DNA of 33,198 bases, taken from contig DAOVKH010000001.1 of the NCBI GenBank assembly GCA_030631875.1, positions 1 to 33,198 of the forward strand, in the 5' to 3' direction. Numbering within the stretch: position 1 is the first letter of the stretch; each line of letters opens with the position of its first letter. Origin of the DNA: Deltaproteobacteria bacterium. GTDB lineage: Bacteria > Desulfobacterota > GWC2-55-46 > DRQE01. The position numbers and the translations under genes are program-made. The notes under the pieces are model-generated. The model was not told the DNA's origin. It saw nothing but the letters and a program-made list of their open reading frames with translations, and did no database searches. Positions 8,429 through 25,505 of the stretch are shown in pieces.

Positions 8429-8450
8429 ATGCTACAGCGGTGACGTCTCG

Positions 8451-9377: not shown

Positions 9378-9486
9378 TCCTTCTTGCCGTCCCCGATAGT
9401 CCTTGCCTATCACCACTCCTAAAGTTACTCCCCGCGTTACTGTGAACACACCTTTACTTAAGGTATTCGAGTATTAATAAAAGTGC

Positions 9487-9515
9487 TTGACAAGCACATA
9501 AATCTATTGTATATT
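9487..9515 (+). promoter_or_regulatory. Near-consensus sigma70-type promoter at the left end of the phage-like cluster, overlapped by a 15-bp perfect palindrome
   Basis: TTGACA (9487-9492), a 17 nt spacer, then TATATT (9510-9515). The palindrome GTGCTTG-A-CAAGCAC (9483-9497) covers the -35. The first downstream ORF starts about 250 nt later. Confidence 0.6.
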
Positions 9516-9769
9516 ACGAGTCACCTTTCGTTAAATAGCCCTTCTAATACACCCTTACTGTTACGTTAGCTTGTATAGTACGATATTCCTTTGTCGTTAT
9601 GGGCGGCTAAGGCGTATGTATTGGATTTCTCAGGGATTTTTCATTTAGCGACGGCATCCATATTACCGTGGTTTTTTAGGTTATCTTTAAGAGGAGGGAG
9701 GGCGGCCGGCCTTTTTGTGTGCATAATACGCACACCTATACTACAACAATATGATGGAGGTATCTTAGA

Positions 9770-10063
9770 TTGAGTGACTTCACGAGGATTGATCCAGATA
9801 GTTTTTATGGAGAACTTAAAGGAGAGGGGGTTGAACTGAGGGACTTGCTGTGGCCGTTGGAGTCTCTAAGCCCCAGAGAGAGAGCTATATTTGTCGAGTA
9901 TCATTACTGGAACACACATATGAAGGTCGTAGCAAAGAGCCATAGAATATCACTTGGGAGGGTCTATGAAATACTCTATAGAGCAGAAAGGAAGATCGCG
10001 TCTTCAAGGCCACAGGAAGAGGAGGAAGGCCGTGGAAGTAGTGGTCCAGAAAGAGGGCACTAA
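9770..10063 (+). CDS. Small sigma-70 region-4-like HTH protein (putative transcriptional regulator of the cluster)
   Basis: 97 aa with a TTG start preceded by GGAGG (9755-9759). LSPRERAIFVEYHYWNTHMKVVAKSHRISLGRVYEILYRAERKI looks like an ECF-sigma r4_2 / LuxR-type HTH. The C-terminal tail is low complexity. Confidence 0.6.
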   Translation: MSDFTRIDPDSFYGELKGEGVELRDLLWPLESLSPRERAIFVEYHYWNTHMKVVAKSHRISLGRVYEILYRAERKIASSRPQEEEEGRGSSGPERGH

Positions 10064-10211
10064 GATAGATTGGCTCGAATACAAGACACTTAGGCAGTAC
10101 CAGACAATGTCAGATATCCTGACAGGTAATGATGAGAGAGTTCTCTCGGATAAGTCCGGTAAGAAGGATTCTTTTGTTAATGGCTCCGATTGGTTGACGA
10201 AGGATCTATGA
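9966..10211 (+). CDS. Hypothetical protein overlapping the 3' end of the preceding ORF in another frame
   Basis: 81 aa from ATG 9966 (the track ORF starts at TTG 9954). A GGGAGGG lies just upstream but the spacing is short. It ends directly before a strong terminator, and no recognisable domain is present. Confidence 0.35.
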   Translation: MKYSIEQKGRSRLQGHRKRRKAVEVVVQKEGTKIDWLEYKTLRQYQTMSDILTGNDERVLSDKSGKKDSFVNGSDWLTKDL

Positions 10212-10249
10212 TTTAAGTAAAAGCACTATATAAAATATAATAGTTTTAA

Positions 10250-10297
10250 GGCGTACCATCTTCAGCTTTGTATCTGAAATGGTGCGCCTTTTTTTTT
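10250..10297 (+). terminator. Strong intrinsic terminator separating the regulatory ORFs from the structural operon
   Basis: GGCGTACCAT (10250-10259) pairs with ATGGTGCGCC (10279-10288) as a 10 bp stem with one G-U. It is followed by T9 (10289-10297). Confidence 0.8.
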
Positions 10298-10327
10298 AAA
10301 ATATTTGTCGATATATTTCTGTTTTTT

Positions 10328-10401
10328 CTTCAAGGGTAGAATAAAAGTCATTAATTTTTTAAATCAAATTAAAAGGTTAGGTCTTTAGGGGTAGAAAGAA
10401 A
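10328..10401 (+). promoter_or_regulatory. Two copies of a 19-nt motif containing GGGTAGAA, 55 bp apart (candidate late-promoter or activator sites)
   Basis: CTTCAAGGGTAGAATAAAA (10328-10346) and CTTTAGGGGTAGAAAGAAA (10383-10401) match at 15 of 19 positions. Each has a weak -10-like hexamer about 16-17 nt downstream: TTAAAT at 10359 and TATATC at 10413. Confidence 0.4.
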
Positions 10402-10473
10402 ACACCATAGGGTATATCGCACGAGATATGTTCTGCATATAGCTCGCGAGAAAATAATCAGGAGGTGTGCTTT

Positions 10474-10659
10474 ATGAATTATTACGGTGGTAGTTATCTT
10501 GGTACGGGAGACTCTACGGCATTCTTTAACGGAAGTAGCGGTGGGCGTGTGAAGGTTCTGTTGAGAGAGGTTGAAGCGTGTAGGGTATGTACAAGGCGGT
10601 TTCTAAGTCTTTATCCGTTAAGTAGTTGTGACGAACACGTCGGTCTCGATAGTTTTTAG
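10474..10659 (+). CDS. Small hypothetical phage protein (Gly/Tyr-rich N-terminus, CxxC plus Cys C-terminus)
   Basis: 61 aa from ATG 10474, with AGGAGG 9 nt upstream (the track ORF starts at GTG 10465). It contains ACRVCTRR...SSCDEH and sits immediately upstream of TerS. Confidence 0.45.
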   Translation: MNYYGGSYLGTGDSTAFFNGSSGGRVKVLLREVEACRVCTRRFLSLYPLSSCDEHVGLDSF

Positions 10660-10671
10660 GAGAGACTATAT

Positions 10672-11166
10672 ATGGCGATAGAGTGGGGAAAACTCAGGAC
10701 AGAGTACGAGTCAGACATAGTAAGTGTAGATGAACTGTCAAAGAAGTACGGCTGCAAGGCACAGACGATAGAGAGAAGGGCAAAGAAGTATGGTTGGGTT
10801 AAGAGGGTAAGGGGTGAAACCCCTTCAGGGCTGAAGCAGGAAGGTAAGGAGAGAAGAAGGGTTAGTCCATTGCCGTCAAGATCTAAGCCAAAGGAGAGTA
10901 CGCGAATACTCGGCGAGCATAGAAGGCTCTGGCAAAGCGTTAAGGGTACATTGGTCGAAGGTATTGCCGAGGGTGATGAGAAGAGACTCAAGGTCGCCAA
11001 GATTGCGGGCGACGGTCTCCTAAATATAGTTAAAGGAGAGAGGCAGGCATGGGGAATTACAGAGGGCTCTACCGATGTATCTGCCGAAGAATTATTAGGT
11101 GTCGTTAAAGAGATGGAAGAAGCTACGGTCTCACGCGGAGCAGAGACGGCTCTGGAGAGAGAATAA
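10672..11166 (+). CDS. terS: Terminase small subunit (HTH DNA-packaging protein)
   Basis: 164 aa with SD AGGAGAG. The N-terminal HTH WGKLRTEYESDIVSVDELSKKYGCKAQTIERRAKKYGWVKR is typical of TerS, and the gene lies directly upstream of and overlapping TerL. Confidence 0.7.
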   Translation: MAIEWGKLRTEYESDIVSVDELSKKYGCKAQTIERRAKKYGWVKRVRGETPSGLKQEGKERRRVSPLPSRSKPKESTRILGEHRRLWQSVKGTLVEGIAEGDEKRLKVAKIAGDGLLNIVKGERQAWGITEGSTDVSAEELLGVVKEMEEATVSRGAETALERE

Positions 11167-12355
11167 AAGATTTAAGGTTGTAGTCGCAGGCAGGCGTAGC
11201 GGCAAGACAGAGCTTGCTAAGCGTAAGCTGGTTCTTTCTTTATGGGGTTCTAAGTCCTGGTTGGATTCTCGTTACTTTGCCGCGGCACCTACGCGCGGAC
11301 AGGCAAAGAGGATCTTCTGGAAGGATTTAAAGAGACTTATTCCGGATACTTGGATAAAGAAAATATATGAGACCGACCTATGTATAACGACAAAGTTCGG
11401 CTCAGAGCTTTGGGTCGTCGGACTTGATAAACCGCAGAGGATAGAGGGTGTCGGTTGGGACGGCGGCGTCCTTGATGAATATGCCGACATGAAGGGCGGC
11501 TTGTGGGCAGAGAATGTAAGGCCTTCGCTCTCAGACAAGGATGGATGGTGCTGGCTGATAGGCGTTCCTAATGGCTTGAATCACTTTAAGGAGTTGGCCG
11601 ATTACGCAAGCTCAGGGGGGGACGCGGATTGGGGGTTTTATAGTTGGCCGTCTTCGGAGATACTTCCTCCTGAAGAGATAGAGTCCGTTAAGCGTACCTT
11701 AGACTCGAAAACTTTTCGCCAGGAATATGAAGCATCATTCGAATCGGCAAGCGGACGCGTATACTACGCATATAGGAGAGATACTCATGAAGATGCTTCG
11801 ATAACTTTAAATCCAAAACTTCCGATAATACTTTGTTGCGACTTTAACGTAGACCCATGCGTATGGGAGTTAGTACAGAGCGATGGATATTTAGTCAAGG
11901 TCTTCGATGAGGTCGCGTTAAGAGATACGAATACCGTAGAGATGGCAAGGGAAGTTAAGAGAAGGTACGGAGGCCACAGGGGTGGATTCATAGTCTACGG
12001 CGACGCTGCCGGAGCTTCAAGGTCCACTACCGGTAAGAGTGATTATGTGCTTCTAAAAGAACTCGGCTTTAAAGACCAGCGCATAGCCAGGGCCAACCCG
12101 CAGGTCAAGGACAGAGTGAATGCCATGAACACGCTACTCTTAAACTCCAAAGGGGAGGTAAGGCTTACGCACCATCCCGTTTGCGGCTACCTTAGGAAAG
12201 ACCTCGAAGGGATAACCTGGAGCGATAGCGGTGAGGGGATAGATAAGAGAGACGGCCTGAGAACGCACGCAAGTGATGCGATAGGATATTACGTTGACAA
12301 GGAATATTCACTTATAAAGAAACGTCTGAATACTTCAAAACGATTTTATAAATAA
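11099..12355 (+). CDS. terL: Terminase large subunit
   Basis: 418 aa. It has Walker A VVVAGRRSGKTE, Walker B GGVLDEYADM, and RNaseH-like nuclease acidic motifs ILCCDFNVDP, VYGDAAG and HASDAIGYY. The only possible start is GTG 11099, right after an in-frame TAG and nested 68 nt inside terS. Confidence 0.9.
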   Translation: MSLKRWKKLRSHAEQRRLWRENKRFKVVVAGRRSGKTELAKRKLVLSLWGSKSWLDSRYFAAAPTRGQAKRIFWKDLKRLIPDTWIKKIYETDLCITTKFGSELWVVGLDKPQRIEGVGWDGGVLDEYADMKGGLWAENVRPSLSDKDGWCWLIGVPNGLNHFKELADYASSGGDADWGFYSWPSSEILPPEEIESVKRTLDSKTFRQEYEASFESASGRVYYAYRRDTHEDASITLNPKLPIILCCDFNVDPCVWELVQSDGYLVKVFDEVALRDTNTVEMAREVKRRYGGHRGGFIVYGDAAGASRSTTGKSDYVLLKELGFKDQRIARANPQVKDRVNAMNTLLLNSKGEVRLTHHPVCGYLRKDLEGITWSDSGEGIDKRDGLRTHASDAIGYYVDKEYSLIKKRLNTSKRFYK

Positions 12356-12366
12356 GAGGAGACGAG

Positions 12367-13737
12367 ATGACGAGAGAAGAACTTTTAAGTACACACCCCG
12401 ACTATGACGCAAATATAGGAGAGTGGCAATTTTTTATGCGCAGTTACTTTGGCGGTAGAATTTACCACGAAGGCGATTATCTTCTTCAGCACCCCTTTGA
12501 GAGTGCCGGTAACTATAAACGCCGTAAAGATATTGCCTACTACTACAACTACTGCGGCCCGATTATAGACATAATGGTCTCGCATCTTTTCCGTAAACCG
12601 CCTAAGCGTGATTACGGTTCATTTACCGACGATAGGCTCTTCCGTTCATTCCTGAATGACGCAGACCTTGAGGGGCTAAGCTTTAATCAATTCATGCGTG
12701 ACGCTCAGAGGTTCGCGTCTATATATGGTCGTGTCTCAATCATAATTGACAAGCCTGTAGTAGTGCCGGGAACGAGAGCCGTTGCCGAGGATTATGATAT
12801 ACGTCCTTATCTTTCGCTTATAACGCCTGAGAACCTTGTGGACTGGAATTATATACGACTCTCATCGGGAAGGCCGGTGCTCGATAGTGTTAAGGTGCGT
12901 GAAGATTCATTGACCTATCGTATATGGAATAGAGATTCGTGGGAGCTTTGGCGTATAGGTGCCGCCGGCAGTGATAATGACGGCGACGCAGTATTGATAG
13001 ACTCAGGCGTTCACGGCCTCGGTATCGTTCCTATAGTTAACCTATACAACAAGAGGTCGGGCGTAAGGATGGTAGGTGCTTCCGATATTCAAGATATAGC
13101 CGATATAAATAAGAACATCTACTACCTCTGCTCAGACGCAAAAGAGATTATAGAGAATACGGCATTCCCGATGTTGGCCATTCCTTATGAGAATGCGGCG
13201 TCTTCCGCTTCAGATGGTGATCGTGAGATTGGACCGAGGAATATTCTTCAATTCGACCCGAGCGAACCGGGTGCGAGGCCTTACTGGCTCGAAGCACCGC
13301 ACTCTTCTTTGAGTGAGATACGCAAGTGGGTAAGGCAAGATATAACTGAGATTCATCGCATAGCCAAGATGGGTGGCGTTAAGTCAACGGAAGACTACAG
13401 TCAGGCGAGAAGCGGGGTTGCCATTGAGCTTGAGTATCAGCAACTACACTCCATGCTCAGCGAGAAGGCCGACAACATAGAACAGGTTGAAAGTCAGTTA
13501 CTTAATTTATTTGGTATGTGGCAGGGAGTGAGCTTCGACGGTTATGTTGATTACCCTGATGATTTTTCGGTTAGGGAGTTGGATAGAGACATAGAGCGCG
13601 CCATAAAGGCGCTTAGTGTAGGGGTAGAGTCCAGGACCTTCAAACGCGAGGTCGAGAAGTCTATCGTCGGCGCGGTACTTACCAAGCTGGATGGTAATAA
13701 AAAACGCGAAATAGATGAAGAGATAGACAACGGCTAA
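12367..13737 (+). CDS. Portal protein
   Basis: 456 aa with SD GAGGAG. It lies immediately after TerL and before the scaffold and capsid genes. Size and position are canonical; the sequence family was not identified by eye. Confidence 0.65.
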   Translation: MTREELLSTHPDYDANIGEWQFFMRSYFGGRIYHEGDYLLQHPFESAGNYKRRKDIAYYYNYCGPIIDIMVSHLFRKPPKRDYGSFTDDRLFRSFLNDADLEGLSFNQFMRDAQRFASIYGRVSIIIDKPVVVPGTRAVAEDYDIRPYLSLITPENLVDWNYIRLSSGRPVLDSVKVREDSLTYRIWNRDSWELWRIGAAGSDNDGDAVLIDSGVHGLGIVPIVNLYNKRSGVRMVGASDIQDIADINKNIYYLCSDAKEIIENTAFPMLAIPYENAASSASDGDREIGPRNILQFDPSEPGARPYWLEAPHSSLSEIRKWVRQDITEIHRIAKMGGVKSTEDYSQARSGVAIELEYQQLHSMLSEKADNIEQVESQLLNLFGMWQGVSFDGYVDYPDDFSVRELDRDIERAIKALSVGVESRTFKREVEKSIVGAVLTKLDGNKKREIDEEIDNG

Positions 13738-13761
13738 GGTTTGAAGGTCTCTGTACCCATA

Positions 13762-13807
13762 CTTGGCGCGGCAAAATTACCCTCGCGCAGTGCCAAGGAA
13801 TTTTATT
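13762..13807 (+). other. Hairpin followed by a T-rich stretch between the portal and scaffold genes (possible weak attenuator)
   Basis: CTTGGC-GCG...CGC-AGT-GCCAAG (13762-13797) followed by GAATTTTATT. Confidence 0.25.
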
Positions 13808-13839
13808 AAAGAGGGGATAGATTAAAAGGAGAAGAGTGA

Positions 13840-14499
13840 ATGAGTAAAGGTTATGAAGGTGATAGAGCTTTTACGGGCGATGGCCAAACAGTAGATTCAT
13901 CTCGGGTGGCGTTTACGCCCGAGCAACAGGTCAAGGTGCAGGAGCTTATAGACGAGTCCTACAAGAGGGCATACCAAAAAGCTCGAAAGGGCACTGTCTC
14001 GTCAGCAGACGTTGAGCTGATGCAACACGAGATAGGCGGGCTTCGAGAAGAGCGAAAGAGGGCGGCCATACTTGGCTCTGTATCACGCCATAATGTCGTT
14101 GACTCAATGGAGGTAGCCGAGCTTATAAGGGGTTCGGTCGTTGAGGGTGACGGCGGCGCTCTTGGCGTTATGGTTAATTCAAAGGACGCTGAGAGTGGAG
14201 GTGTGATGATGGGAGTAGATGAGTATGTCGATAGTTGGTTGTCCGATAGGCCACACCATATGCGAAGTCCGGGTATGGTCGGTGCGGGGTCTTCCGCGGC
14301 CTTCTTTGGCGGTGGAGGAAGGAAGGCATACAACCTCTCTGACCCAAACCTGTGGCGCACCTTGCCGCGAGAAGAAGTGGATAGGGTCTTGAGTGAAGGG
14401 ATAAACGTCCAAGGCGTGTCGGGTCAGACCTTCAGCTTTAAGGATGTCAAAAATCCTTTCCTTGAGGCAAAGAAAAGAAGCAATAAGACAGGAGGATAA
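13840..14499 (+). CDS. Capsid scaffolding protein
   Basis: 219 aa with SD AAGGAGAAG. It is charged with predicted helices (EQQVKVQELIDESYKRAYQKARKG), lies between portal and major capsid, and ends 5 nt before the capsid gene. Confidence 0.55.
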   Translation: MSKGYEGDRAFTGDGQTVDSSRVAFTPEQQVKVQELIDESYKRAYQKARKGTVSSADVELMQHEIGGLREERKRAAILGSVSRHNVVDSMEVAELIRGSVVEGDGGALGVMVNSKDAESGGVMMGVDEYVDSWLSDRPHHMRSPGMVGAGSSAAFFGGGGRKAYNLSDPNLWRTLPREEVDRVLSEGINVQGVSGQTFSFKDVKNPFLEAKKRSNKTGG

Positions 14500-14504
14500 T
14501 TTTT

Positions 14505-15368
14505 ATGGCAAACGAAGTAACTACAGGAGCAGGTTCTGCCGGCGAGTTGGTAGCGGCAGAGATAGTATCAAGGCTTGTAATAGACGCGGCCTACGCCGAG
14601 GCAGTCATGCCCGTGCTCGTAAGGACGGCCGACATAAGCGGTGAGTCGACCAATACGGTCGACTTTCCAAAGTGGCCTCTATTGAGCGCGAGCGATCTAA
14701 GCGAAGGCACAGATGCCAGTAACACGGCCGTCAATACAAGTTCTACGAGTGTCATCTCCGATGAGGCCGGTATCATGATAACCGTTACCGATATGCTCTT
14801 AAATGGCGCAGGCATCGGAGGGCTTGAGCCGTACGCAATGGAGCTTGGTAAGGCTCTTGCCAATAAGATAGATACAGACCTTCTCGGAGAGGTTGGAGAC
14901 TTTACAAATTCCGTAGGCACATCTGGTGCCGCTATGACGGAGGCAAACTTCCTCGAAGCAATATATATGCTCGAGAGTGCCAACGCCAAAGGCCCCTATG
15001 CCTGCGTACTGCATCCTGTGCAGATAAGGGATCTAAGGCAGGCTCTTGCTTCAGCAACAGGAGCCGTATGGGGAGGTCCGAGTGCTCCGGCCGCGGATCT
15101 CGGCGCGTTCGCAAACCTCTACGGTGTGGATATATACAGATCCACAAACTGTGCTTCGGTCAATGTCGACGCAGACCGTCAGGGCGTTATGATGCCTCAG
15201 GGCAATAACAGTGGTCTTGCCTTTGTGCTTAAGACCGGTGCGAAGACCGAGTTTCAGAGAGACGCATCACTTCGCGCAACAGAGATAGTCGTTACGGCTG
15301 TCTATGGCGACGAGTGTGTAGACGCGGACGCAAGCGGTGGTGTGGCGATAATCACCGACCACGAGTAG
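14505..15368 (+). CDS. Major capsid protein (probably HK97-fold, no delta domain)
   Basis: 287 aa with SD AGGAGG. It follows the scaffold gene, is rich in Ala/Gly/Thr as structural proteins often are, and is followed by a perfect 14 bp hairpin. Confidence 0.7.
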   Translation: MANEVTTGAGSAGELVAAEIVSRLVIDAAYAEAVMPVLVRTADISGESTNTVDFPKWPLLSASDLSEGTDASNTAVNTSSTSVISDEAGIMITVTDMLLNGAGIGGLEPYAMELGKALANKIDTDLLGEVGDFTNSVGTSGAAMTEANFLEAIYMLESANAKGPYACVLHPVQIRDLRQALASATGAVWGGPSAPAADLGAFANLYGVDIYRSTNCASVNVDADRQGVMMPQGNNSGLAFVLKTGAKTEFQRDASLRATEIVVTAVYGDECVDADASGGVAIITDHE

Positions 15369-15384
15369 GTAGAGCGTTAGGTAT

Positions 15385-15424
15385 TTACGAAGAGGCCTTT
15401 CTTTATTACGAGGCCTCTTCGTAA
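15385..15424 (+). terminator. Perfect 14-bp stem hairpin after the capsid gene (attenuator or RNA-stability element; no U-tract)
   Basis: TTACGAAGAGGCCT (15385-15398), a 12 nt loop, then AGGCCTCTTCGTAA (15411-15424). Confidence 0.45.
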
Positions 15425-15453
15425 ACCTTAAAAAGATGCAGGGAGATAAATTT

Positions 15454-15723
15454 ATGTCCGACATAGTTCGTTCGATGGAGCGTAAAGGATTTAAAGCACT
15501 TGCGGTAAATGATAGAGGCGGGATTGGGTTTAAGGCTTCCTTCAAAGAAGACCTCGAAGAGCTTGAAGAGCCGGTCTGGTTCGATACAGGGCTTAAGATG
15601 AAGGGCATCGACAAAAACGGTCTTACAGTCGAGGTAAATAGGAGCGTATGTGCGCGTGATAAACAGAAGTATAGAGAGTACGAGGCAAATGGATGGAAGC
15701 CTACGGGTGTAGGCAATGGATAA
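15454..15723 (+). CDS. Hypothetical phage protein
   Basis: 89 aa from ATG 15454, with GGGAGA 7 nt upstream (the track ORF starts at ATG 15436). No recognisable domain. Confidence 0.5.
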   Translation: MSDIVRSMERKGFKALAVNDRGGIGFKASFKEDLEELEEPVWFDTGLKMKGIDKNGLTVEVNRSVCARDKQKYREYEANGWKPTGVGNG

Positions 15724-15874
15724 AGCCAAGGTCGTTGACCGAGTAGTAGGACGTATATACAAGGAAAAATTAAAGAGCGGTGCCACCTTACCGAGCGGTA
15801 AAGAAGTTAAAGAAATGAAACGTAGGGTAGTCAGTGCGGCTGAAAAGGTAGATAGAAGAAGAGATAGAGTTTGA
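15716..15874 (+). CDS. Small basic hypothetical protein (52 aa, below the ORF-track cutoff)
   Basis: The ATG at 15716 overlaps the upstream stop (ATGGATAA). It translates to MDKAKVVDRVVGRIYKEKLKSGATLPSGKEVKEMKRRVVSAAEKVDRRRDRV and fills an otherwise empty gap in a tightly packed operon. Confidence 0.4.
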   Translation: MDKAKVVDRVVGRIYKEKLKSGATLPSGKEVKEMKRRVVSAAEKVDRRRDRV

Positions 15875-15907
15875 GAGTTTACTTTAAGAGAAAAGAGAGG
15901 TCTTGTT

Positions 15908-16123
15908 ATGGCTGAGTATTACCTTGAGATAAATGAAGAACTTACCGAAGAGACGGCTCTAAGCCGTCAGCCTTTAGGAGTCAGGGTTTCGGTTGCAGGT
16001 AGAGAAGATGCCTTGGAAAAAGTTTCTATCTTCGAGCCCTTTTTTGACGGAAGGCTCTATACAAAAGAACTTCACAGGTGTAACCACGATAGTGGTACTC
16101 CGTGCGCAAAGGAGACGCTCTAA
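15908..16123 (+). CDS. Hypothetical phage protein
   Basis: 71 aa with SD AGAGAGG 7 nt upstream. Its stop overlaps the next start (TAATG). Confidence 0.5.
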   Translation: MAEYYLEINEELTEETALSRQPLGVRVSVAGREDALEKVSIFEPFFDGRLYTKELHRCNHDSGTPCAKETL

Positions 16124-16908
16124 TGGCATTAACCGTTGGGCTTAAGGCTCTATATCACTTAAATGGTGACGCGAGAGATTCTTCGGGTAACGGTAACCAC
16201 GGAACGGTAGTAGGAGCAACGGTTGAATCTGAAACGGTAAAGCTTGGTTCAGCGGCTTACTCATTTGACGGCGTAGATGACCGTGTAAGCATTCCTCTTC
16301 TGAACTTTGATGAGGTAAGTGTTGCTTTCTGGTTCAACCGTTCGTCGCTGGATTCAGTTAATGCCGACACAGTTTTTGGTGCTTGGAAGTGGAGCTCGGA
16401 TGTACAGTTACAGGAAGGTTTTGACGTTGGAAGGTTTTTTCAACTTTCCCCTAATAAGTGCGATTTTACGATTGTTACTGAGGACGGAGGCGGCGTGAGG
16501 TCTGTAAAGACCGTTGCACATAACGTAGGTGACAGCACGGGTAGCTGGACACACCTCGTTGCTACATATTCAAAATCTACAGGCGAACAAAAGTTATACA
16601 TAGACGGTCTGCTAAGAGATACCACTGCACACATCGCAGGTAACACTATAGTACACTCGACATACTTTGTGGATATGTGGATAGGGGCTTCGCGTGTTAA
16701 TCAGGGATACTTTAACGGATTTATAGACGAGGTGGCTCTGTGGGATAGACCCCTGAGTGACGGTTCAGTTTCGGTCGGCGAGGTGGCCGGAGGCGAAGTA
16801 GCAGAATCATATAATGACGGATTTGGACGAGAAATTAAACTTACGCCGAAAGGGTATGTACCAAGGTCTGTGCATAAGGCGATTAAAGTAAAGGCGGTGA
16901 AGGTATGA
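16123..16908 (+). CDS. LamG / concanavalin-A-like lectin domain protein (Laminin_G_3-like), possible capsid decoration or head fibre
   Basis: 261 aa from ATG 16123, with AAGGAGA 7 nt upstream (the track ORF starts at GTG 16102). It has the hallmark pattern LYHLNGDARDSSGNGNHGTVVG...YSFDGVDDRVSIP...VAFWF...GSWTHLVATYSKSTGEQKLYIDG...FNGFIDEVALWDRPLS. Confidence 0.8.
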   Translation: MALTVGLKALYHLNGDARDSSGNGNHGTVVGATVESETVKLGSAAYSFDGVDDRVSIPLLNFDEVSVAFWFNRSSLDSVNADTVFGAWKWSSDVQLQEGFDVGRFFQLSPNKCDFTIVTEDGGGVRSVKTVAHNVGDSTGSWTHLVATYSKSTGEQKLYIDGLLRDTTAHIAGNTIVHSTYFVDMWIGASRVNQGYFNGFIDEVALWDRPLSDGSVSVGEVAGGEVAESYNDGFGREIKLTPKGYVPRSVHKAIKVKAVKV

Positions 16909-17789
16909 ACCAGCAATTTTTGATAGATACGGCAGATAAGTTTCGAACTTACATCTATGCGGATAATATATGTATAGTGCCGAGCTCGGCGACTATTACT
17001 ATATACAAGCCGGGTGGAGATGTTTTGCTCGTAGACTCTGCCACTATGGGCGTGGAAGCCGACGGCCTATTGACCTATGAGCTGAGTGCTTTGGATAACG
17101 CTACTGTCGATAGAAGTTACAAGAGTATTATAACTTACATATATGACGGGGAGACTTATTATATAAGCATTTTTTATGATGTCGTTCATTCAAGGCTTAC
17201 AAAGGTTATAACCGATGACGATCTTGTTAGAGAATTCCCGCAGTTGAAAGACGCAGAGTGGAGAGTCCACGGTACGGCCGATAGCGGTACGACAACCACC
17301 ATTGTCGACGAGGAGCTTAAGCGTTATGCAGAGGGTTATTTTACGGGCGGCCTTGCCTATTCAATAGACAAGGATGAGACGCGCGAGATAACGGACTTTG
17401 TCGCAAGCAGTGCTACCGTTACCGTTAAGGCTTTTGGCTCAGCGGTAATAAGCGATAAGTATATTCTTACACGTTCATTTTTGAGAGAGATAGAGCGTGC
17501 TTTTGAAAAGATAGAGGAGAGGCTCATTGCCGCCGGCAAGAGGCCTGAGCTTGTATTGGATTCTCAGGATTTGAGAAGCCTACATATATACGCATCTGTC
17601 GCTGAGGTAGCAAAAGGGTTGTCATCTAAGGTCGATGATTTTTGGTGGACTCTGTGGAAGGAATATGACGTTAAGGCCGACAGAGCCTTTGCGGTACTGC
17701 CCATTAAGTACGATACTTCGGGCGACGGTTATATAAGTTCCTCTGAAGATGGTTTACATCTTGGGTCTATAAGAACAGGTAGGGGGTAG
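16905..17789 (+). CDS. Hypothetical virion protein (possible head-tail adaptor or connector)
   Basis: 294 aa with an ATGA start/stop overlap with the LamG gene. It lies between the head genes and the tail tube genes. No motif recognised. Confidence 0.4.
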   Translation: MNQQFLIDTADKFRTYIYADNICIVPSSATITIYKPGGDVLLVDSATMGVEADGLLTYELSALDNATVDRSYKSIITYIYDGETYYISIFYDVVHSRLTKVITDDDLVREFPQLKDAEWRVHGTADSGTTTTIVDEELKRYAEGYFTGGLAYSIDKDETREITDFVASSATVTVKAFGSAVISDKYILTRSFLREIERAFEKIEERLIAAGKRPELVLDSQDLRSLHIYASVAEVAKGLSSKVDDFWWTLWKEYDVKADRAFAVLPIKYDTSGDGYISSSEDGLHLGSIRTGRG

Positions 17790-17794
17790 AGCGG

Positions 17795-18226
17795 ATGTCT
17801 AACTATCAGGTGGTAAGTTCTATTACCGAAAACTTAAGGCAACTCCTGCAGGGTGAGGGGATAAAGTTTTCAGCCAAGGTATTCGAAGACGAGAGTGCTA
17901 TACCGATGAGCCTTATTCCTTTCGGGAGGATACTCTATAAAGGAGAGAGCTTTGAGCACTCTTATGGAATGAAGCCGGGGTATGTTGACGCGGAGTTTCT
18001 AACGACCGTTACCCTTAAGGGTAACGACGATGCCTCCTTAATGGATGAGGCACAGCTCTGGACGCATCGTCTGCGAGAAGCTGTAACGGTATCGGCCGTT
18101 AATGTTGGAGGCTTGTCGGCTTCGAAGCCGGTCACTCAAGCTGCCATAAGTAAGGTTGATGTTAAGCGTGATGGAGAGCTTATTTCTTTAAGCGGCGTGG
18201 TTACGCTTAGATATAGAGAAGGTTGA
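17795..18226 (+). CDS. Hypothetical virion protein (possible tail terminator or head-tail joining protein)
   Basis: 143 aa, directly upstream of the putative major tail protein. Confidence 0.35.
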   Translation: MSNYQVVSSITENLRQLLQGEGIKFSAKVFEDESAIPMSLIPFGRILYKGESFEHSYGMKPGYVDAEFLTTVTLKGNDDASLMDEAQLWTHRLREAVTVSAVNVGGLSASKPVTQAAISKVDVKRDGELISLSGVVTLRYREG

Positions 18227-18258: not shown

Positions 18259-19350
18259 ATGGCTGAAAGTAAGATGTACCTTGCCGTTGGTGAAGAATCA
18301 ACGAGAGGGGTTAAGGAAGTGGCAACAGTAGGGTTCATACCGCTCTTGTCACCGTCTATTCCAAAGATGGAATTCGACGAGATACGACGTACAGAAATGC
18401 GAGGTACGAGCGGGGTCATGGGAGATACGTCGGTTACGCGCATGAGCCGCAAGTGGGGGGCGTCCATGGAGATGCCGTTCTTTACCGAGGCGGGCGGAAG
18501 TAAGCCCATGGTAGGGACTATCTTAAAGCACTTCTTCGGCAGTGCCGTGAGCGCACAGCAGGGGACGACTAACGCTTACGCGCATATGATCTATCCCGTT
18601 GCAGATCCTTTTTCGACGGCGAATTTAAGTGACTCTGCCTTAACGTTGAACTTGAATATCAACGAGGGGGCTGTCATGAAGAACTGGCCCTTTGTGGGAG
18701 GACGAGTCAGTAGCCTTAGCTTTGAGCAAGAGGCAGGTCAGCACTTGAAACTCTCCGCGGAATTCTTCGGACAGTTCAGAGACGACGTTACAGTCGAGAT
18801 AGGTTCTCCGGTCTTCGCACTTGAAAATCTGCGCTGTGATTACAGCAACCTTAAACTCTATACCGGAACGATTGTGAGAACCGGCACGGCCCCCGATTAT
18901 ACGGACTTTGATTTTACGGCGGCAACACAGATAAAGCCCGACACTATAAGTGTCAAGATAGAGAACGGCATGGAAGACGTATTAAGATTGACCGGACTTG
19001 ATTACTCCGATAAGACGCGCATGGGTAAGTTCAAGGTCTCGGTAGAGATGACGATAGACTGGGAAGATCCTTCAAGCGGCTTTAGCTCCGTCGACGAGTT
19101 CAATAGTTGGATTGCTTCAACGGCTTCAACGAATCTTTGTCTTGAGTGGGACAGCGGTACAGAGGCTGATACAGGCTATAACCATAAGTTCATAATCGAT
19201 ATACCGGTAGCGCTCAGGATGGGCGGCGAGGTAGAGTTCGACGCTGAAAAAGATCCAATGGTAACGCTCAACTACGAGGGCTTGTACGATGCCGATGGAG
19301 TTGGTTATATAGTAGGTTCTTTACTTCAAAATACGGCGACCTCTATTTAA
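18259..19350 (+). CDS. Putative major tail (tube) protein
   Basis: 363 aa with SD AAGGAGG. It lies immediately upstream of the G/GT chaperone pair and the tape measure, which is the canonical position for the siphovirus tail tube gene. Confidence 0.5.
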   Translation: MAESKMYLAVGEESTRGVKEVATVGFIPLLSPSIPKMEFDEIRRTEMRGTSGVMGDTSVTRMSRKWGASMEMPFFTEAGGSKPMVGTILKHFFGSAVSAQQGTTNAYAHMIYPVADPFSTANLSDSALTLNLNINEGAVMKNWPFVGGRVSSLSFEQEAGQHLKLSAEFFGQFRDDVTVEIGSPVFALENLRCDYSNLKLYTGTIVRTGTAPDYTDFDFTAATQIKPDTISVKIENGMEDVLRLTGLDYSDKTRMGKFKVSVEMTIDWEDPSSGFSSVDEFNSWIASTASTNLCLEWDSGTEADTGYNHKFIIDIPVALRMGGEVEFDAEKDPMVTLNYEGLYDADGVGYIVGSLLQNTATSI

Positions 19351-19380
19351 TAGAGTAGAAGCTGATAGGGAGGCTATAGA

Positions 19381-19755
19381 GTGGCTATCATAAGTTTCGA
19401 TCAAGATGCTGTTGTAGATTATATTCCGTCTTACGGAGCGAATAGAGATTCGGAAGACCCCTGTACGGTGAGTCTCAGGTTTATCCCTTATGCGCGCGTG
19501 CAGTATTATTCGCGTATCATTGCGGCAAGAACAAAAGGTGTTATCGAGGCCGAGAAGGTTCAAGAGATAACGCAGAGTGTCCAGCGAAGACAATTTGTGG
19601 AGAGCGTTAGCAGGGTGTCAGGTTATTTTGTGGGAGCTAAAGAGGTCACGGATCCTAACGAGCTTTATGATACGGCGGATACGGAGCTTATAGTGGAGTT
19701 GATACGCGCTATGGAGAATGCACAGAGGTTAACCGAGGGCCAAAGAAAAAACTAA
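19381..19755 (+). CDS. Tail assembly chaperone (G-like)
   Basis: 124 aa with a GTG start and GGGAGG 7 nt upstream. It ends ...CAA AGA AAA AAC TAA, with a slippery heptamer in frame just before the stop. It sits between the tail tube and the tape measure. Confidence 0.7.
   Translation: MAIISFDQDAVVDYIPSYGANRDSEDPCTVSLRFIPYARVQYYSRIIAARTKGVIEAEKVQEITQSVQRRQFVESVSRVSGYFVGAKEVTDPNELYDTADTELIVELIRAMENAQRLTEGQRKN
19746..19752 (+). promoter_or_regulatory. Programmed -1 ribosomal frameshift slippery site A_AAA_AAC
   Basis: The X_XXY_YYZ heptamer is in the correct zero-frame phase (codons AGA AAA AAC). The -1 frame is open from here (CTA ATA GCG GGT CTC CGT TGG AGC AAG) into ATG 19779. Confidence 0.75.
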
Positions 19756-19778
19756 TAGCGGGTCTCCGTTGGAGCAAG

Positions 19779-20147
19779 ATGACGGATGGCAAGGGCCCGT
19801 TTAGTTGTGAGGCGTGTTCTGAAAGCGATAAAGGTATGCGTAATTGTTTTAACGTACGCGGACTCTCTGAAAGAGCACGCGCTCTGAGTAAGTATGATGA
19901 AGATGTTGTCTCTGAACATAAAAAAAATACGGCAAAGAAGGTATTTACGCTCGGAGATATAAGGTTATATGAATGTCCGCTCAGTTATATTACGAGCGAT
20001 ACGAGGGGAATCTTAAGGGTCTTATATATGGCGGATTTTCTCGGTACGTTGGTATTGGCCGGTGGAATTGCCGAGCAACCTTGTTGGTTTATTGAGGCAG
20101 TTGAAATCTACGGAGTTGAAAGTGCCAAGGCTTTAAAGGAGAAATAG
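19779..20147 (+). CDS. T-like extension ORF of the tail assembly chaperone, probably expressed as a G-T fusion of about 255 aa by -1 frameshift
   Basis: 122 aa ORF in the -1 frame relative to 19381..19755. Unlike its neighbours it has no convincing SD before its ATG. Its stop abuts the tape measure start (TAGATG). Confidence 0.65.
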   Translation: MTDGKGPFSCEACSESDKGMRNCFNVRGLSERARALSKYDEDVVSEHKKNTAKKVFTLGDIRLYECPLSYITSDTRGILRVLYMADFLGTLVLAGGIAEQPCWFIEAVEIYGVESAKALKEK

Positions 20148-21065: not shown

Positions 21066-21068
21066 AAG

Positions 21069-21857
21069 GTGGTCTTAGATTGGGCGAAGGTTAAATTCTT
21101 TTACGATACGATGTTAGGTACGCCGTCGTCGACACTTCAGGCAACATCTACCGAGAGCGGCGACTATGACGTTAAGTATCTACATAACTGGCTTGAGACT
21201 AACAAGTGGCAGGCCGCTGATTCAAGCACTCCGCAATATATAACATATGACGCAGGAAGTGGGAATTCCAATGAAGCCGACTATCTTATTGTATACGGAC
21301 ATAATTTGGCGGAGGCAGGCGCAAGCATTACGCTTCAGTACTCAGACGACGGTTTTATCTCGGACGTGAATGACGTCTTTACCACTGAGGCGATAAGCTC
21401 TGACGCTGTATATCTTAAGGAGTTCGTAGGCCCGGGAGCGTATAGGTTTTGGCGTTTAAAGATAGAGGGGCCTTTATCCGAAGTTCCCTGCATGACGCTT
21501 TGCCTATGGGGTGAAGCAACAGAGCTGGATTACTGCACGTCAAGCTTTGATCCTAATGAAGAGGATATAAAGGCTAACGTAGGAATAAGCTACGGCGGCT
21601 ATCTTACCGGCAGTCACATAAAACATGTTGAACGCAGGATGCTCTTGAACTTCAGTGATTCGGATTCCCTGCTCTATCAGAAGATAAAGCTTTGGAGAGA
21701 CACACATGGGTTGAATAATCTTTTTGTGGCATGGGAGTTGGCAAATAACCCCGCAGACGTATGGCTGATGAGGCCTTCGCCGAGGTTTAGAAACCCGCTT
21801 AATGAGACCGGGCTCTATAGGGATATTTCCATAGAGCTTAACGGAAGGAAGGAGTAG
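21069..21857 (+). CDS. Putative distal tail / baseplate protein
   Basis: 262 aa with a GTG start and GGAGGA 7 nt upstream. It is the first gene after the tape measure. The pattern WQAADSSTPQYITYDAG...ADYLIVYGHNL...ITLQYSDDG...YRFWRLKIEG suggests a beta-sandwich fold. Confidence 0.45.
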   Translation: MVLDWAKVKFFYDTMLGTPSSTLQATSTESGDYDVKYLHNWLETNKWQAADSSTPQYITYDAGSGNSNEADYLIVYGHNLAEAGASITLQYSDDGFISDVNDVFTTEAISSDAVYLKEFVGPGAYRFWRLKIEGPLSEVPCMTLCLWGEATELDYCTSSFDPNEEDIKANVGISYGGYLTGSHIKHVERRMLLNFSDSDSLLYQKIKLWRDTHGLNNLFVAWELANNPADVWLMRPSPRFRNPLNETGLYRDISIELNGRKE

Positions 21858-21861
21858 GCGT

Positions 21862-22215
21862 ATGGCTATAACTCTTTCAGATGCCTACCTCGGAAAGCTT
21901 AAAGAAGGTGTCAATGAGCCAAATGTTATATTGGAGGTTACCTTAGATAGCGGCACCGTTAAGTGGGGTTACTCCACGGGCGGGTTTTCCGACGTACTAC
22001 CCATAGTGAAGAGCCTGTCGTCGTTACAAAATAAGCTCGATATAAAAGGCGGCTTTGTGACCCTTGGGCAGATTACGGTCGTTATCAGCGGACGAGATAA
22101 CTTTAAAGAACTCTTGAGAGACGAATTCTTAAAGAACAGAAGGGTTGTACGTAAAGACGGTTTTAGCGCCGTAACTTACGACGATTACGCCGCTACATTT
22201 ACAGGTACGATATAG
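21862..22215 (+). CDS. N-terminal segment of the tail hub / tip protein, ended by an in-frame TAG
   Basis: 117 aa with SD AAGGAG 7 nt upstream. It is in the same reading frame as 22264..23505, separated only by TAG 22213-22215 and 16 sense codons. Confidence 0.6.
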   Translation: MAITLSDAYLGKLKEGVNEPNVILEVTLDSGTVKWGYSTGGFSDVLPIVKSLSSLQNKLDIKGGFVTLGQITVVISGRDNFKELLRDEFLKNRRVVRKDGFSAVTYDDYAATFTGTI

Positions 22216-22263
22216 AATTGGTCGAGGCGAGGTGACGAGCTTACCATAACTATAGCCGACGAT

Positions 22264-23505: not shown

Positions 23506-23517
23506 GGAGGTGGAGCT

Positions 23518-23973
23518 ATGACAGTACCGAGTAAGTCGTGGAGTCTAATAACGGACGGGCAGGTAGATGCCGACAGTCCGCTCGATACGACATTGATTAC
23601 GGCCTTGCGCGATAACCTCGTGCACTTAGAGGAGTGGCTTGGTGACGGGTATGCGGCAACGAAGGATCATGACCATGACGGTTTAAATAGTAAGGTATTA
23701 GGCACTCCATCTATGCAGTCGAGCGGTTATCAGGATATAGCCGCCAGTGCTACATGGACGCCAAGTCTTGGGAGCTATCAATTTGTAGTTCATAATGCGA
23801 CGGGGGCAGCGTCTCCGCAGTTATATATTGATTCCGCATGGAGGGGATGGACCGGAGCCGGCAACGGGATACGTGAGGTCGGAAGTTTTGGATACTTTGA
23901 TGGAGCAAATATGAGGTTCCTTGAGAGAACCGGCGCGGGCACGGTAAGGCTCTGGTATCAAAAGTTTAATTAA
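23518..23973 (+). CDS. Small putative tail fibre / receptor-binding protein
   Basis: 151 aa with SD AAGGAGGTG. It is the last structural gene after the hub. The N-terminus WSLITDGQVDADSPLDTTLITALRDNLVHLEEWLG resembles N-termini of phage fibre proteins; this is from memory and unverified. Confidence 0.4.
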   Translation: MTVPSKSWSLITDGQVDADSPLDTTLITALRDNLVHLEEWLGDGYAATKDHDHDGLNSKVLGTPSMQSSGYQDIAASATWTPSLGSYQFVVHNATGAASPQLYIDSAWRGWTGAGNGIREVGSFGYFDGANMRFLERTGAGTVRLWYQKFN

Positions 23974-23982
23974 GGAGGCGTT

Positions 23983-24246
23983 ATGATTATAGATAAGACA
24001 AAAGAAGAGTGCGCTCATATACCTCATAGCCTTGACGGAGAGGTATTGCTTGAAGAGAGGAAAGATGAGGACGGTAATAGTAAGGGGTTCCTTACTATTA
24101 AACCGGAATACCTGAAGCACTACGGCGAGACGAAGAGCAGCGAAGAGCTTGCCGAGCTTGGCTTTGGCAAATATATGAATACGATTGCATCGGTGATGGC
24201 GCGTAGCGACATAAAGGGAAGGCCGCCGGAGGTTATCGTAGGATAA
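23983..24246 (+). CDS. Hypothetical phage protein
   Basis: 87 aa with SD AAGGAGG 4-5 nt upstream. Hydrophilic, with no recognised motif. Confidence 0.5.
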   Translation: MIIDKTKEECAHIPHSLDGEVLLEERKDEDGNSKGFLTIKPEYLKHYGETKSSEELAELGFGKYMNTIASVMARSDIKGRPPEVIVG

Positions 24247-24249
24247 GTT

Positions 24250-24465
24250 ATGGGAGATATAGATGAATTATCACGCGCCATCGGGCGTATTGAAGGTGCT
24301 CAGGTAGAGATGTTGAAGAACCAGCAGGAGATAAAAGAAGAACAGATTCTTTTGAGAGGTTCTATAGCAGAGCAACGTCTTAGTGTTGCTAAGATATCGG
24401 GAGCGGTAGCACTTGTATTTTCAGTTGTCGTTACGAGTCTTCGCGATTACTTCTTTAAAAACTAA
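24250..24465 (+). CDS. Small coiled-coil protein with one C-terminal TM helix (lysis-cassette membrane protein; holin, antiholin or spanin-like)
   Basis: 71 aa. The N-terminal heptad-like region (IEGAQVEMLKNQQEIKEEQILL) is followed by ISGAVALVFSVVVTSL. It lies directly upstream of the endolysin. Confidence 0.45.
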   Translation: MGDIDELSRAIGRIEGAQVEMLKNQQEIKEEQILLRGSIAEQRLSVAKISGAVALVFSVVVTSLRDYFFKN

Positions 24466-24477
24466 TAGGAGGTCTTC

Positions 24478-24915
24478 TTGAGAAAGATAGATAAAATAAT
24501 TCTCCATTGCAGTGATTCGGACTTTGGAGATAAAGATCTAATAGACGGCTGGCACAGCGCGCGCGGTTGGGATGGAATCGGTTATCACTATGTGATACTC
24601 AACGGACATCCTTCGGATGCGCCATATAGAAGGTCCGAAGACGGGGTCATCGAAATCGGTAGAGACGTGGATGAAATAGGGGCACATTGTTACGGAGAGA
24701 ATAAAGACAGTATAGGAATATCGCTGGTAGGGCGAAATCACTTTACTCCTCTTCAGCTCTTCGTAGCATTGCCGTTACTTTTATCCGCACTCTTAAAGGA
24801 GCACGGCCTTGGGGTTAAGGATATATTCGGTCATGGTGAATTCAACTCGAAGAAGACGTGCCCCAATATGGATATGAAGGTCTTTAGAGAGAACCTTTCA
24901 CGTACGCTCTACTAA
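24478..24915 (+). CDS. N-acetylmuramoyl-L-alanine amidase endolysin (Amidase_2 / PGRP / T7-lysozyme-like)
   Basis: 145 aa with a TTG start after AGGAGGT. It has the zinc-amidase pattern IILHCSDS...GWDGIGYHYVI...GAHCYGENKDSIGISLVG...FGHGEF..KTCP and no signal peptide. Confidence 0.85.
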   Translation: MRKIDKIILHCSDSDFGDKDLIDGWHSARGWDGIGYHYVILNGHPSDAPYRRSEDGVIEIGRDVDEIGAHCYGENKDSIGISLVGRNHFTPLQLFVALPLLLSALLKEHGLGVKDIFGHGEFNSKKTCPNMDMKVFRENLSRTLY

Positions 24916-25004
24916 AGGGAGTTGGAGACGTAGAAGATAGAGAAGATGTTGTCGATTAAAGATAAGCTTCGGAGGGTTAGCTTCGAGCTAAGGAGGATTA
25001 TGTT

Positions 25005-25433
25005 ATGACACCGATTATAGGAGACCTTATAAAGAACACGGTAGGTAAGGTTGTAGGGCGTCTTGCCGATAAGTATCTGCCTAAGTCTATGAGTGAGGCA
25101 GAGAGAGCCGACTTTAACATGGAGGCCGAGCGTCTTGCCATAGAGGAGTATAAGACGGCGATAGCCGACGTGCAGGGCGCACGCGAACTTGCCATGAAAG
25201 AATCCGATGACGCTCCGCCTTGGACTAAAGTCCTTACCGTTACGCACAGACCGATGTGGAGTCTTTTAATATTGGCGGCCTTTGTGTGGACAATCGTTGC
25301 GCCGTCCTTTGGTATGAATGTGATAACCCTCACCGAGATACATAAGGATATAATGCAGACGGTTATTATCTTTTACTTTGGCGGTCGTACTGTAGAGAAG
25401 ACGGCTGGGCTACTTCGTAAGTACAAGATGTAG
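25005..25433 (+). CDS. Holin-like membrane protein (DUF3154 / GTA_holin_3TM-like)
   Basis: 142 aa with SD AAGGAGGA. It has an amphipathic Gly-rich N-terminus (IIGDLIKNTVGKVVGRLADKYLP), a charged helix, then HRPMWSLLILAAFVWTIVAPSFG and IMQTVIIFYFGG hydrophobic segments. It is the last gene of the cluster. The family assignment is from memory. Confidence 0.55.
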   Translation: MTPIIGDLIKNTVGKVVGRLADKYLPKSMSEAERADFNMEAERLAIEEYKTAIADVQGARELAMKESDDAPPWTKVLTVTHRPMWSLLILAAFVWTIVAPSFGMNVITLTEIHKDIMQTVIIFYFGGRTVEKTAGLLRKYKM

Positions 25434-25461
25434 CGTTCTTGGTAGAAGTTGTTTTTCCTAA

Positions 25462-25505
25462 ACGTCCTTTTGTAGGCCTTTTGTGCCTTCGGAAGGGCGT
25501 TTTTA
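25462..25505 (+). terminator. Putative intrinsic terminator closing the phage-like operon
   Basis: ACGTCCTT (25462-25469) pairs with AAGGGCGT (25493-25500), with an inner AGGC/GCCT stem, followed by TTTTT. Confidence 0.45.

Follow-up and report, generated by a model that had tools for sequence, protein, structure and literature searches.

Does a compact block of phage head, tail and lysis genes that stands among ordinary chromosomal genes represent the remains of a prophage, a mobile phage, or a particle system that now belongs to its host? This question is raised by a locus in a 33,198-nucleotide (nt) stretch of DNA from a Deltaproteobacteria bacterium (contig DAOVKH010000001.1, assembly GCA_030631875.1; hereafter the window, at its full length), in which about 26 tightly packed, co-directional genes occupy positions 9483-25505. 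Analysis of the open reading frames (ORFs), with functions assigned via PHROGs and Pfam and NCBIfam also compared, identified a regulatory unit, the small and large terminases (TerS and TerL), portal, scaffold, capsid, connectors, a siphovirus-type tail and a lysis cassette. We consider it likely that this cluster is a domesticated, functional and chromosomally fixed particle system of siphovirus origin, that is, a gene transfer agent (GTA)-like "viriform". The best explanation of its occurrence is vertical inheritance within a clade of uncultured Thermodesulfobacteriota, of order or class depth, that has kept it functional. The cluster is a strong candidate for an independently evolved GTA, which would plausibly transfer random host DNA.

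The distribution of the cluster provides the first line of evidence. With gene order and gene sizes alike, it was identified in at least 54 loci of uncultured Thermodesulfobacteriota/"Deltaproteobacteria" metagenome-assembled genomes (MAGs) and metagenomes, with additional loci drawn from Logan, IMG/VR and JGI metagenomes (WIN denotes the window's own cluster, and L with a number a related locus from MAGs and metagenomes). A scan for the central gene o294, using one genome per GTDB species, recovered the cluster in 39 species-level genomes. The best 120 of the 263 portal homologues detected are 56-100% identical, and those among them that are named by source are all Deltaproteobacteria/Thermodesulfobacteriota MAGs or unclassified bacterium/metagenome; several are located on contigs of 0.1-2.75 Mb. 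The host clade is widespread and uncultured, comprising Thermodesulfobacteriota from groundwater, sediment and hydrothermal settings.

The initial annotation of this DNA had suggested that vertical, syntenic conservation with purifying selection would speak for domestication, and both were observed. In every locus that shows the right end (WIN, L029, L033, L039, L041), the holin gene is followed by lpxC. The left flank varies by host subclade, with SelA-GGDEF/EAL-DUF3108 in one (WIN, L007, L010, L043, L045, L046, L070-L076) and prs-rplY-pth-hppA-ychF in the other (L001, L004, L019, L029, L033, L039), while more distant DUF3108 loci, serving as outgroups, have neither the cluster nor lpxC close by. 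The identities of portal, TerL, tube and o294 proteins follow those of the adjacent YchF, with r of 0.89-0.92 over 15 pairs (0.89-0.94 for cluster proteins when the major capsid protein, MCP, with 6 pairs, is counted), the pairs being non-independent and out of six genomes. Between the subclades, MCP is 78-84% and portal 65-79% identical, versus 51-60% for LpxC and 41-58% for DUF3108. Across six independent close pairs, the ratio of nonsynonymous to synonymous divergence (dN/dS) is 0.02-0.44 for every cluster gene, typically 0.05-0.15, a range that the flanking genes share, with 0.069 for HppA, 0.03-0.07 for YchF and 0.155 for LpxC. The dS of the cluster equals that of the flanking genes, and the two therefore share the same divergence time. 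Among the complete core-gene copies of 54 loci, 359/375 (96%) are uninterrupted, and the interruptions are mostly domain insertions or likely assembly errors. Synteny, co-divergence, dN/dS and intact genes together favor a GTA-like or otherwise domesticated system over a stripped defective prophage, between which the initial annotation had not decided.

The way in which the cluster can be lost is also informative. In L077, a 104 kb metagenome contig, SelA-GGDEF/EAL-DUF3108 is followed by a remnant of the cluster promoter and then by the 3' part of a holin gene that contains an in-frame stop; lpxC stands further on. This locus has lost the cluster through internal deletion and not through site-specific excision. 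Neither of the signs of mobility that had been named as contrary evidence, namely clean attachment (att) sites with an empty locus in relatives or a linked integrase, was found: there are no att sites, the sole "empty" relative is the deletion scar of L077, and no integrase occurs in any locus. The scar itself, at 10763-11330 of L077, joins the promoter remnant GTGCTTTACACACACATAAATAAATGATATAAT to the 3' holin fragment. Another internal-deletion derivative of the cluster was noted in the IMG/VR contig L062 (2861-5300), where a frameshifted portal gene is directly followed by the distal-tail and hub genes.

As in known GTAs, the structural genes here are phage-derived and stand without replication, integration or excision genes of their own, and they are inherited vertically under purifying selection. 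The equipment of a temperate prophage (integrase/recombinase, att repeats, lysogeny switch, replication module) was not found in the window, and the flanks of the related loci showed no such gene either. RcGTA (Rhodogtaviriformidae) is likewise a ~15-16 kb head-tail cluster without integration or replication genes, shows vertical inheritance within a deep clade under purifying selection and has a short non-contractile tail, as is predicted for the present cluster. Its dedicated activator GafA has a sigma-region-4-like domain and is analogous to the candidate activator sig4, the first gene of the cluster. The holin of our cluster falls in the RcGTA holin family PF11351, with a score of 24.0 bits just under the cut-off of 24.8. 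Except for this family, no RcGTA head-tail family in Pfam or NCBIfam was matched in the cluster, and homology to RcGTA g1-g15 was not found, the matched families being only SPP1_portal, Phage_capsid_4, Terminase_6N and Phage_tube_2. The cluster also differs from RcGTA in having a scaffold-plus-MCP head instead of a protease and an HK97-type MCP, an SPP1-type portal, a TerS with a helix-turn-helix (HTH) domain, and lysis genes and a regulator inside the cluster, whereas those of RcGTA are scattered over the genome. The proposal that the cluster forms an independent lineage, not of the RcGTA type, thus holds on both family matches and head type.

PBSX of Bacillus resembles the cluster in that particle and lysis genes share one chromosomally fixed locus, a late operon is switched on by a sigma-like factor, and particle production costs the producer its life by lysis. 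It differs in its contractile tail, the Xre repressor encoded within the element, a ~28 kb locus and a host in another phylum. In the cluster, no ORF for a sheath or an element-encoded Xre-type repressor was identified, and the tube belongs to the Phage_tube_2 family and is accompanied by chaperones and a tape measure protein (TMP). Dd1 of Desulfovibrio desulfuricans shares the phylum and has a comparable element size, packaging 13.6 kb, but no Desulfovibrio is present among the named portal homologues (best 120 of 263). That the genes of Dd1 have never been assigned, as the initial annotation had it, is doubtful, since a review mentions a putative Dd1 small terminase, which is reported to lack a DNA-binding domain (PMC11841831). 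In the literature, we found neither an earlier description of the cluster nor a GTA described in its lineage, Dd1 being the only GTA mentioned for Thermodesulfobacteriota.

Overall, the cluster probably represents a new, independently domesticated and self-contained GTA-like family, with a predicted function and an evolutionary pattern as in known GTAs and less so as in PBSX-like elements. GTAs are known in only a handful of lineages, and their true prevalence and the recognition of GTAs without RcGTA homology are open problems (PMC11841831, PMC9953437). The present family was recognized by comparative genomics alone: its locus is fixed, it co-diverges with the host, its dS equals that of the flanking genes at low dN/dS, cassettes are swapped within slots, and a deletion scar exists. 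It thereby provides a worked example of sequence criteria by which domestication can be called.

Several observations weigh against this reading. In most lineages, TerS still begins with an HTH domain of the phage type, whereas the putative TerS proteins of all known GTAs are reported to have no detectable DNA-binding domain (PMC11841831); a TerS without a specific DNA-binding domain, a trait of known GTAs and not a formal criterion, is thus not what the cluster has. The particle might hold the whole cluster, to judge from the phages that have homologous heads (at least 30 kb). The window's own hub gene contains a nonsense codon, and a similarly diverged tail module is found in a true phage, which indicates some phage exchange. 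Co-divergence was measured on pairs that are not independent of each other. That sig4 acts as an activator, and a conserved element ahead of the structural genes as a promoter, is what we infer, and a fold search of the PDB with an AlphaFold2 (AF2) model of sig4 returned nothing significant (best E 0.96), though sigma region-4 domains top the list. All hosts are uncultured MAGs, and the cluster is known from genes alone.

The DNA-binding-type domain of TerS may bear on what is packaged. In the AF2 model, residues 1-45 (predicted local distance difference test score 83-91) form a three-helix, HTH-type domain, followed by a helical hairpin at 74-126, and the N-terminal motif is conserved in most loci; fold searches gave only weak local HTH matches, and sequence searches of the PDB with TerS were uninformative. 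It is possible, though we regard it as improbable, that the cluster is a host-owned engine of lateral transduction. Because the element never excises or replicates, a sequence-specific TerS would then initiate packaging at a pac site that is fixed in the chromosome, within or close to terS, and packaging would proceed processively, headful by headful, across the cluster and lpxC into the chromosomal DNA beyond, under a sigma-region-4-like activator of its own and a clade-conserved late promoter. The family offers a natural test of whether GTA-type packaging truly requires the loss of the TerS DNA-binding domain. As to capacity, the initial annotation had argued that about 16 kb is too small for an autonomous phage, which is uninformative on what the head can hold: related heads package ~31.6 kb. 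The homologous heads are those of phages of ~30-32 kb, compared with 16 kb to >21 kb for the cluster, and the particle may hold more than the cluster because these heads belong to ~30 kb phages.

It is unlikely, in our assessment, that the cluster encodes a PBSX-like defective-phage killer particle, kept to kill or compete or for programmed lysis, with packaged DNA that is incidental and not productively delivered. Vertical inheritance, purifying selection and the lack of replication and integration genes are signatures that such a particle would have in common with a GTA, a sigma-like late activator stands ahead of the late operon as does Xpf of PBSX, and the adhesin cassettes diversify. Yet TerS, TerL and portal are as constrained as the tail genes, which is unexpected if DNA content is irrelevant, and the tail is short and non-contractile, unlike those of PBSX and tailocins. 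The argument from packaging constraint is blunted by the fact that PBSX likewise keeps its packaging genes, and sequence data cannot separate the killer-particle and gene-transfer readings.

We regard as very unlikely an autonomous temperate phage or mobile element that uses host recombinases (e.g., Xer) and host replication at a site beside lpxC. The DNA-recognition domain kept by TerS would suit such an element, as would a head type that could hold 16-23 kb, but there are no att repeats in the window, and no integrase or replication gene was identified in any of the ~54 related loci. Cluster relatives are listed as viral contigs in IMG/VR, and the tail module is shared with the true phage L040; against this, cluster and flanks have the same dS, cluster identities follow YchF, the left flank changes with the host subclade beside a constant right flank, and the sole loss event, in L077, is an internal deletion and not an excision. 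Finally, an ordinary decaying prophage remnant, intact here by chance, is extremely improbable and already contradicted by our data, since 96% of core genes are intact over deeply diverged genomes, every gene is under the dN/dS values given above, and the frameshift site, promoter and other cis-elements are conserved; the one nonsense codon in the hub gene and the disruptions in a few relatives (L028, L062) speak in its favor.

The features of the cluster are listed in Table 1. The initial annotation had counted 27 co-directional ORFs in a single operon. Orientation and packing stand, but the count is ~26, 27 being reached only with an unsupported leader ORF (9591-9773), and a strong intrinsic terminator divides the regulatory unit from the structural genes. 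The near-consensus promoter at the left end (11/12 consensus positions), the terminator-like site at the right end and the start/stop overlaps quoted there are all present.

Table 1. Features of the cluster, with window positions, strand and the basis of each assignment.
Feature	Position	Strand	Basis or remark
Sigma-70 promoter TTGACA-17-TATATT	9487-9515	+	Near-consensus; precedes sig4
O1, candidate operator	9483-9497	+	Perfect 15-bp palindrome GTGCTTGACAAGCAC; covers the -35 hexamer
5' leader, ~250 nt	9516-9769	+	Contains palindrome O2
O2, GTGC-N7-GCAC palindrome	9719-9733	+	In leader, 37 nt ahead of sig4
sig4, stand-alone sigma-70 region-4-like HTH protein, 97 amino acids (aa)	9770-10063	+	Weak matches
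o85, small conserved protein	9966-10211	+	Overlaps sig4 3' end, +1 frame
Intrinsic terminator	10250-10297	+	10-bp GC-rich stem and T9; ends regulatory unit
Bipartite DNA motif	10333-10415	+	GGGTAGAATAA (10334-10344), ~43 nt, AGGGGTAGAAAGAAAACACCATAGGGTAT (10387-10415)
o64, small Cys-rich protein	10474-10659	+	First gene of structural operon
TerS, small terminase	10672-11166	+	PHROG_1206 E 9.6e-9, residues 3-47
TerL, large terminase	11099-12355	+	PHROG_2 E 5.5e-36; Terminase_6N; 60-68% identical across loci
Portal, SPP1 gp6-like / DUF4055	12367-13737	+	PHROG_145 E 5.7e-72
Scaffolding protein (weak)	13840-14499	+	PHROG_14063 E 0.0045; position as HTVC111P scaffold gene
MCP, major capsid protein	14505-15368	+	PHROG_544 E 6e-15; Phage_capsid_4
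Three small ORFs (95, 52, 71 aa), presumed head-completion/connector	15436-16123	+	Position, partial conservation
LamG/concanavalin-like protein	16123-16908	+	Laminin_G_3 E 4.6e-20; variable cassette
o294 and o143, neck/tail-completion proteins	16905-18226	+	Conserved in all loci
Tail tube protein	18259-19350	+	Phage_tube_2 E 9e-12
Tail assembly chaperones G and G-T	19381-20147	+	ORFs 19381-19755 / 19779-20147
TMP, tape measure protein, 305 aa	20148-21065	+	PHROG TMP families E 4e-14
o262, presumed distal tail protein	21069-21857	+	Position and conservation
Tail hub/fiber-anchor protein, 547 codons	21862-23505	+	One in-frame TAG
o151 (conserved tail-tip/fiber-associated), o87, o71b	23518-24465	+	o71b: C-terminal transmembrane segment, precedes endolysin
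Endolysin, N-acetylmuramoyl-L-alanine amidase	24478-24915	+	Amidase_2 E 1.4e-9; PHROG_822 E 3e-27
Holin, three transmembrane segments	25005-25433	+	PF11351 GTA_holin_3TM full length, E 5.8e-5
Right boundary of element	25477-25505	+	Terminator-like hairpin and T-run; lpxC next at 25562-26467

MCP is 72-84% identical across loci, at a dN/dS of 0.02-0.045. The small ORFs that follow MCP have no family match, and the same is true of o294 and o143. In the chaperone genes, a slippery heptamer A_AAA_AAC at 19746-19752 is located in the correct phase directly ahead of the stop codon, and the -1 frame is open from there into the downstream ORF. The heptamer is invariant in 43/44 cluster loci, while synonymous positions next to it vary, in agreement with the earlier statement that the chaperone frameshift site is intact. 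The length of the TMP implies a tail that would be short. In L014, L017, L022, L028 and L044, 2-4 tandem paralogous ORFs of ~150-280 aa (family f14), which have no family match, were observed between the TMP and distal tail genes.

The in-frame TAG of the hub gene (22213-22215) aligns with CAG (Gln) in L046, and the sequence 3' of it stays highly conserved; orthologues are intact in L046 (547 aa) and L029 (572 aa). The TAG may have arisen by recent nonsense mutation, may be polymorphic in the population or may reflect an error in base calling. Programmed recoding of the hub gene was considered and rejected, the CAG-to-TAG change of WIN, the one frameshift of L033 and the many of L039 all being at different positions; the numerous frameshifts of L039 are typical of long-read errors.

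Adsorption and lysis genes show a different pattern. Both the amidase and the holin named in the initial annotation were confirmed as lysis genes, but the amidase is lineage-specific and not a conserved part of the cluster. The endolysin slot is fixed and its occupants are non-orthologous: Amidase_2 in WIN, an M15 peptidase in L029/L033/L039, a T4-type lysozyme (also labeled GH24) in L041, GH108 in L009/L013 and another M15-like peptidase in L011/L015. Whatever the enzyme, one holin family always comes next, 51-80% identical in other loci. Similarly, the LamG protein is restricted to WIN, L046, L016, L022 and L026, and other loci have Mtd_N-domain or GDSL-esterase proteins in its place; the products of this cassette between MCP and o294 are candidate adhesin or decoration proteins. 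The cassettes that separate the distal tail gene from the hub gene vary as well and include pectate-lyase-like fibers. Parts for adsorption and lysis are thus turned over in fixed slots on a conserved chassis, as expected of released, cell-binding particles. One variable-cassette protein, of 731 aa in L017 (6166-8361), carries an Mtd_N domain (major tropism determinant), of the type targeted by diversity-generating retroelements.

Upstream of the structural genes, the regulatory unit is conserved as well. TTGACA-17-TATAAT precedes sig4 in 19/20 loci at 10-12 of 12 positions, with 12/12 in 12 loci. The O1 palindrome is perfect in WIN, L010, L016 and L045, with a symmetric co-variant, GTTCTTGACAAGAAC, in L023, and similar palindromes are found again in the leaders of most loci. 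GTGC-N7-GCAC occurs three times in the window, versus 0.23 expected; the third copy, at 18542-18556 inside the tube gene, may be due to chance. No known RNA was identified by Rfam in the leader or intergenic regions. Matches of sig4 are to Pfam Sigma70_r4 (E 8.9e-5, under the curated cut-off), a PHROG sigma factor (E 2e-4) and, in the PDB, region 4 of WhiG (E 0.008). The protein is 57-94% identical across loci, and all 104 detectable homologues lie within this cluster family.

The overlap of sig4 and o85 (window 9954-10063) is itself conserved in >20 loci, and outside it o85 keeps the motif W.EYKT.RQYQ.MGD...NG..WLT.D, likewise in >20 loci. A frameshift fusion of the two is less likely, and two overlapping genes are preferred, because o85 has its own ATG with GGAGG and L045 has a stop right after the sig4 core. 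At the position of the terminator, a hairpin with a T-run is present in at least 17/23 loci, the position being kept and the sequence not. Beyond it, the bipartite element takes the form GGGGTAGAATAA, ~43 nt, AGGGGTAGAAAAAAAACACCATAGGGTAT across loci. It was found 5' of o64 in ~20 species-level loci of both host subclades, with no further copy in the 0.9 Mb of sequence retrieved, and its arrangement GGGTAGAATAA ... AGGGGTAGAA-N6-CACCATAGGGTAT is unlike any promoter type that we could name. In L014 (about 1040-1330), the terminator-plus-motif unit stands in tandem duplicate. The o64 product has no family match, and its motif RVLLRE.E.C..C...F.SLYPL..C.DH.GLD is conserved in ~30 loci. We consider sig4 a candidate activator of the structural operon, possibly together with o85 or o64, and the bipartite element a candidate late promoter or activator binding site. 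A repressor encoded elsewhere, we infer, keeps the consensus promoter off via the palindromes.

A possible course of events in the proposed GTA-like system is as follows. The consensus sigma-70 promoter, guarded by the GTGC-N7-GCAC operators, would normally be repressed by a factor encoded elsewhere. On release, the sigma-region-4-like protein would be produced, with o85, and transcription would extend to the structural operon, either starting at the conserved element GGGGTAGAA...CACCATAGGGTAT or reading through the terminator. Capsids would be built on the scaffold and filled in situ with DNA by TerS-TerL, and this DNA would have to be chromosomal because nothing excises or replicates the cluster. 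Short non-contractile tails would then join the capsids, the holin and endolysin would lyse the producer, and the freed particles would adsorb to related cells. With regulator, cis-elements, particle and lysis genes in one 16 kb block, the cluster suits heterologous reconstruction, and its conserved regulatory motifs could help to locate regulon members that are not linked to it.

Among cultured phages, HTVC111P-type pelagiphages (31.6 kb) come closest, with 34% identity in TerL, 38% in portal and 33% in MCP; they share the TerL-portal-scaffold-MCP order but have a DnaD-domain, replication-type gene upstream. A 30 kb contig, L063 (IMGVR_UViG_3300041402_000316), is closer (TerL 55%, portal 49%, MCP 62%, o294 46%); in the place taken by host genes beside the cluster, it encodes Erf, a replication initiator and a Holliday-junction resolvase. 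Neither these phages nor L063 have sig4, o85, o64 or a TerS of the cluster type. The Thermodesulfobacteriota MAG contig L040 (1-13842) represents a true phage that encodes a D5-like primase, a TerL and a portal of the lambda type, and an S78 protease-capsid fusion. The o294-o143-tube-chaperone module is present in this phage at 52-61% identity, without the A_AAA_AAC site. Tail modules have therefore been exchanged with circulating phages.

In the window, the left boundary of the element lies at the promoter and O1 (9483-9515), and similarity to L046 starts at 9478. The genes to its left encode MurJ, MazG, SelA, a Cache-HAMP-PAS-GGDEF-EAL protein and a DUF3108-like protein, and those to its right LpxC, a cold-shock protein, a cupin, tRNA-Ala, a response regulator, a histidine kinase, GalT, DksA and an LppC-like protein. 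All genes outside the cluster are thus ordinary host genes, and no integrase, replication, recombination or repressor gene was identified among the genes of the window. This matches the initial description, as do the lack of an abutting tRNA (the only one, tRNA-Ala at 27451-27526, is 1.9 kb off, past lpxC) and of flanking direct repeats, the only common 14-mer being at or in host genes and not at the cluster ends. This 14-mer, GTCTCGGTGTTGAT, at 8445-8458 and 25812-25825 (~0.03 such matches expected by chance), was rejected as an att site because one copy is just 5' of the DUF3108 start and the other inside lpxC. The G+C content of the cluster is in line with the host, and its codon style is host-like, with correlations of relative synonymous codon usage (RSCU) of 0.70 between cluster and host and 0.64 between the two host flanks, and an RSCU for ATA-Ile of 1.84 against 1.87 in the cluster/host comparison. 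Further to the left, a 600-nt gap at 3195-3798 between the divergent mazG and selA genes is without an annotated feature or an Rfam match at the gathering threshold. At the other end, a gene for a DUF2905-like small membrane protein, absent from the window, stands between holin and lpxC in L029 (20139-20375), L033 (20104-20355), L039 (17157-17372) and L041 (10278-10502).

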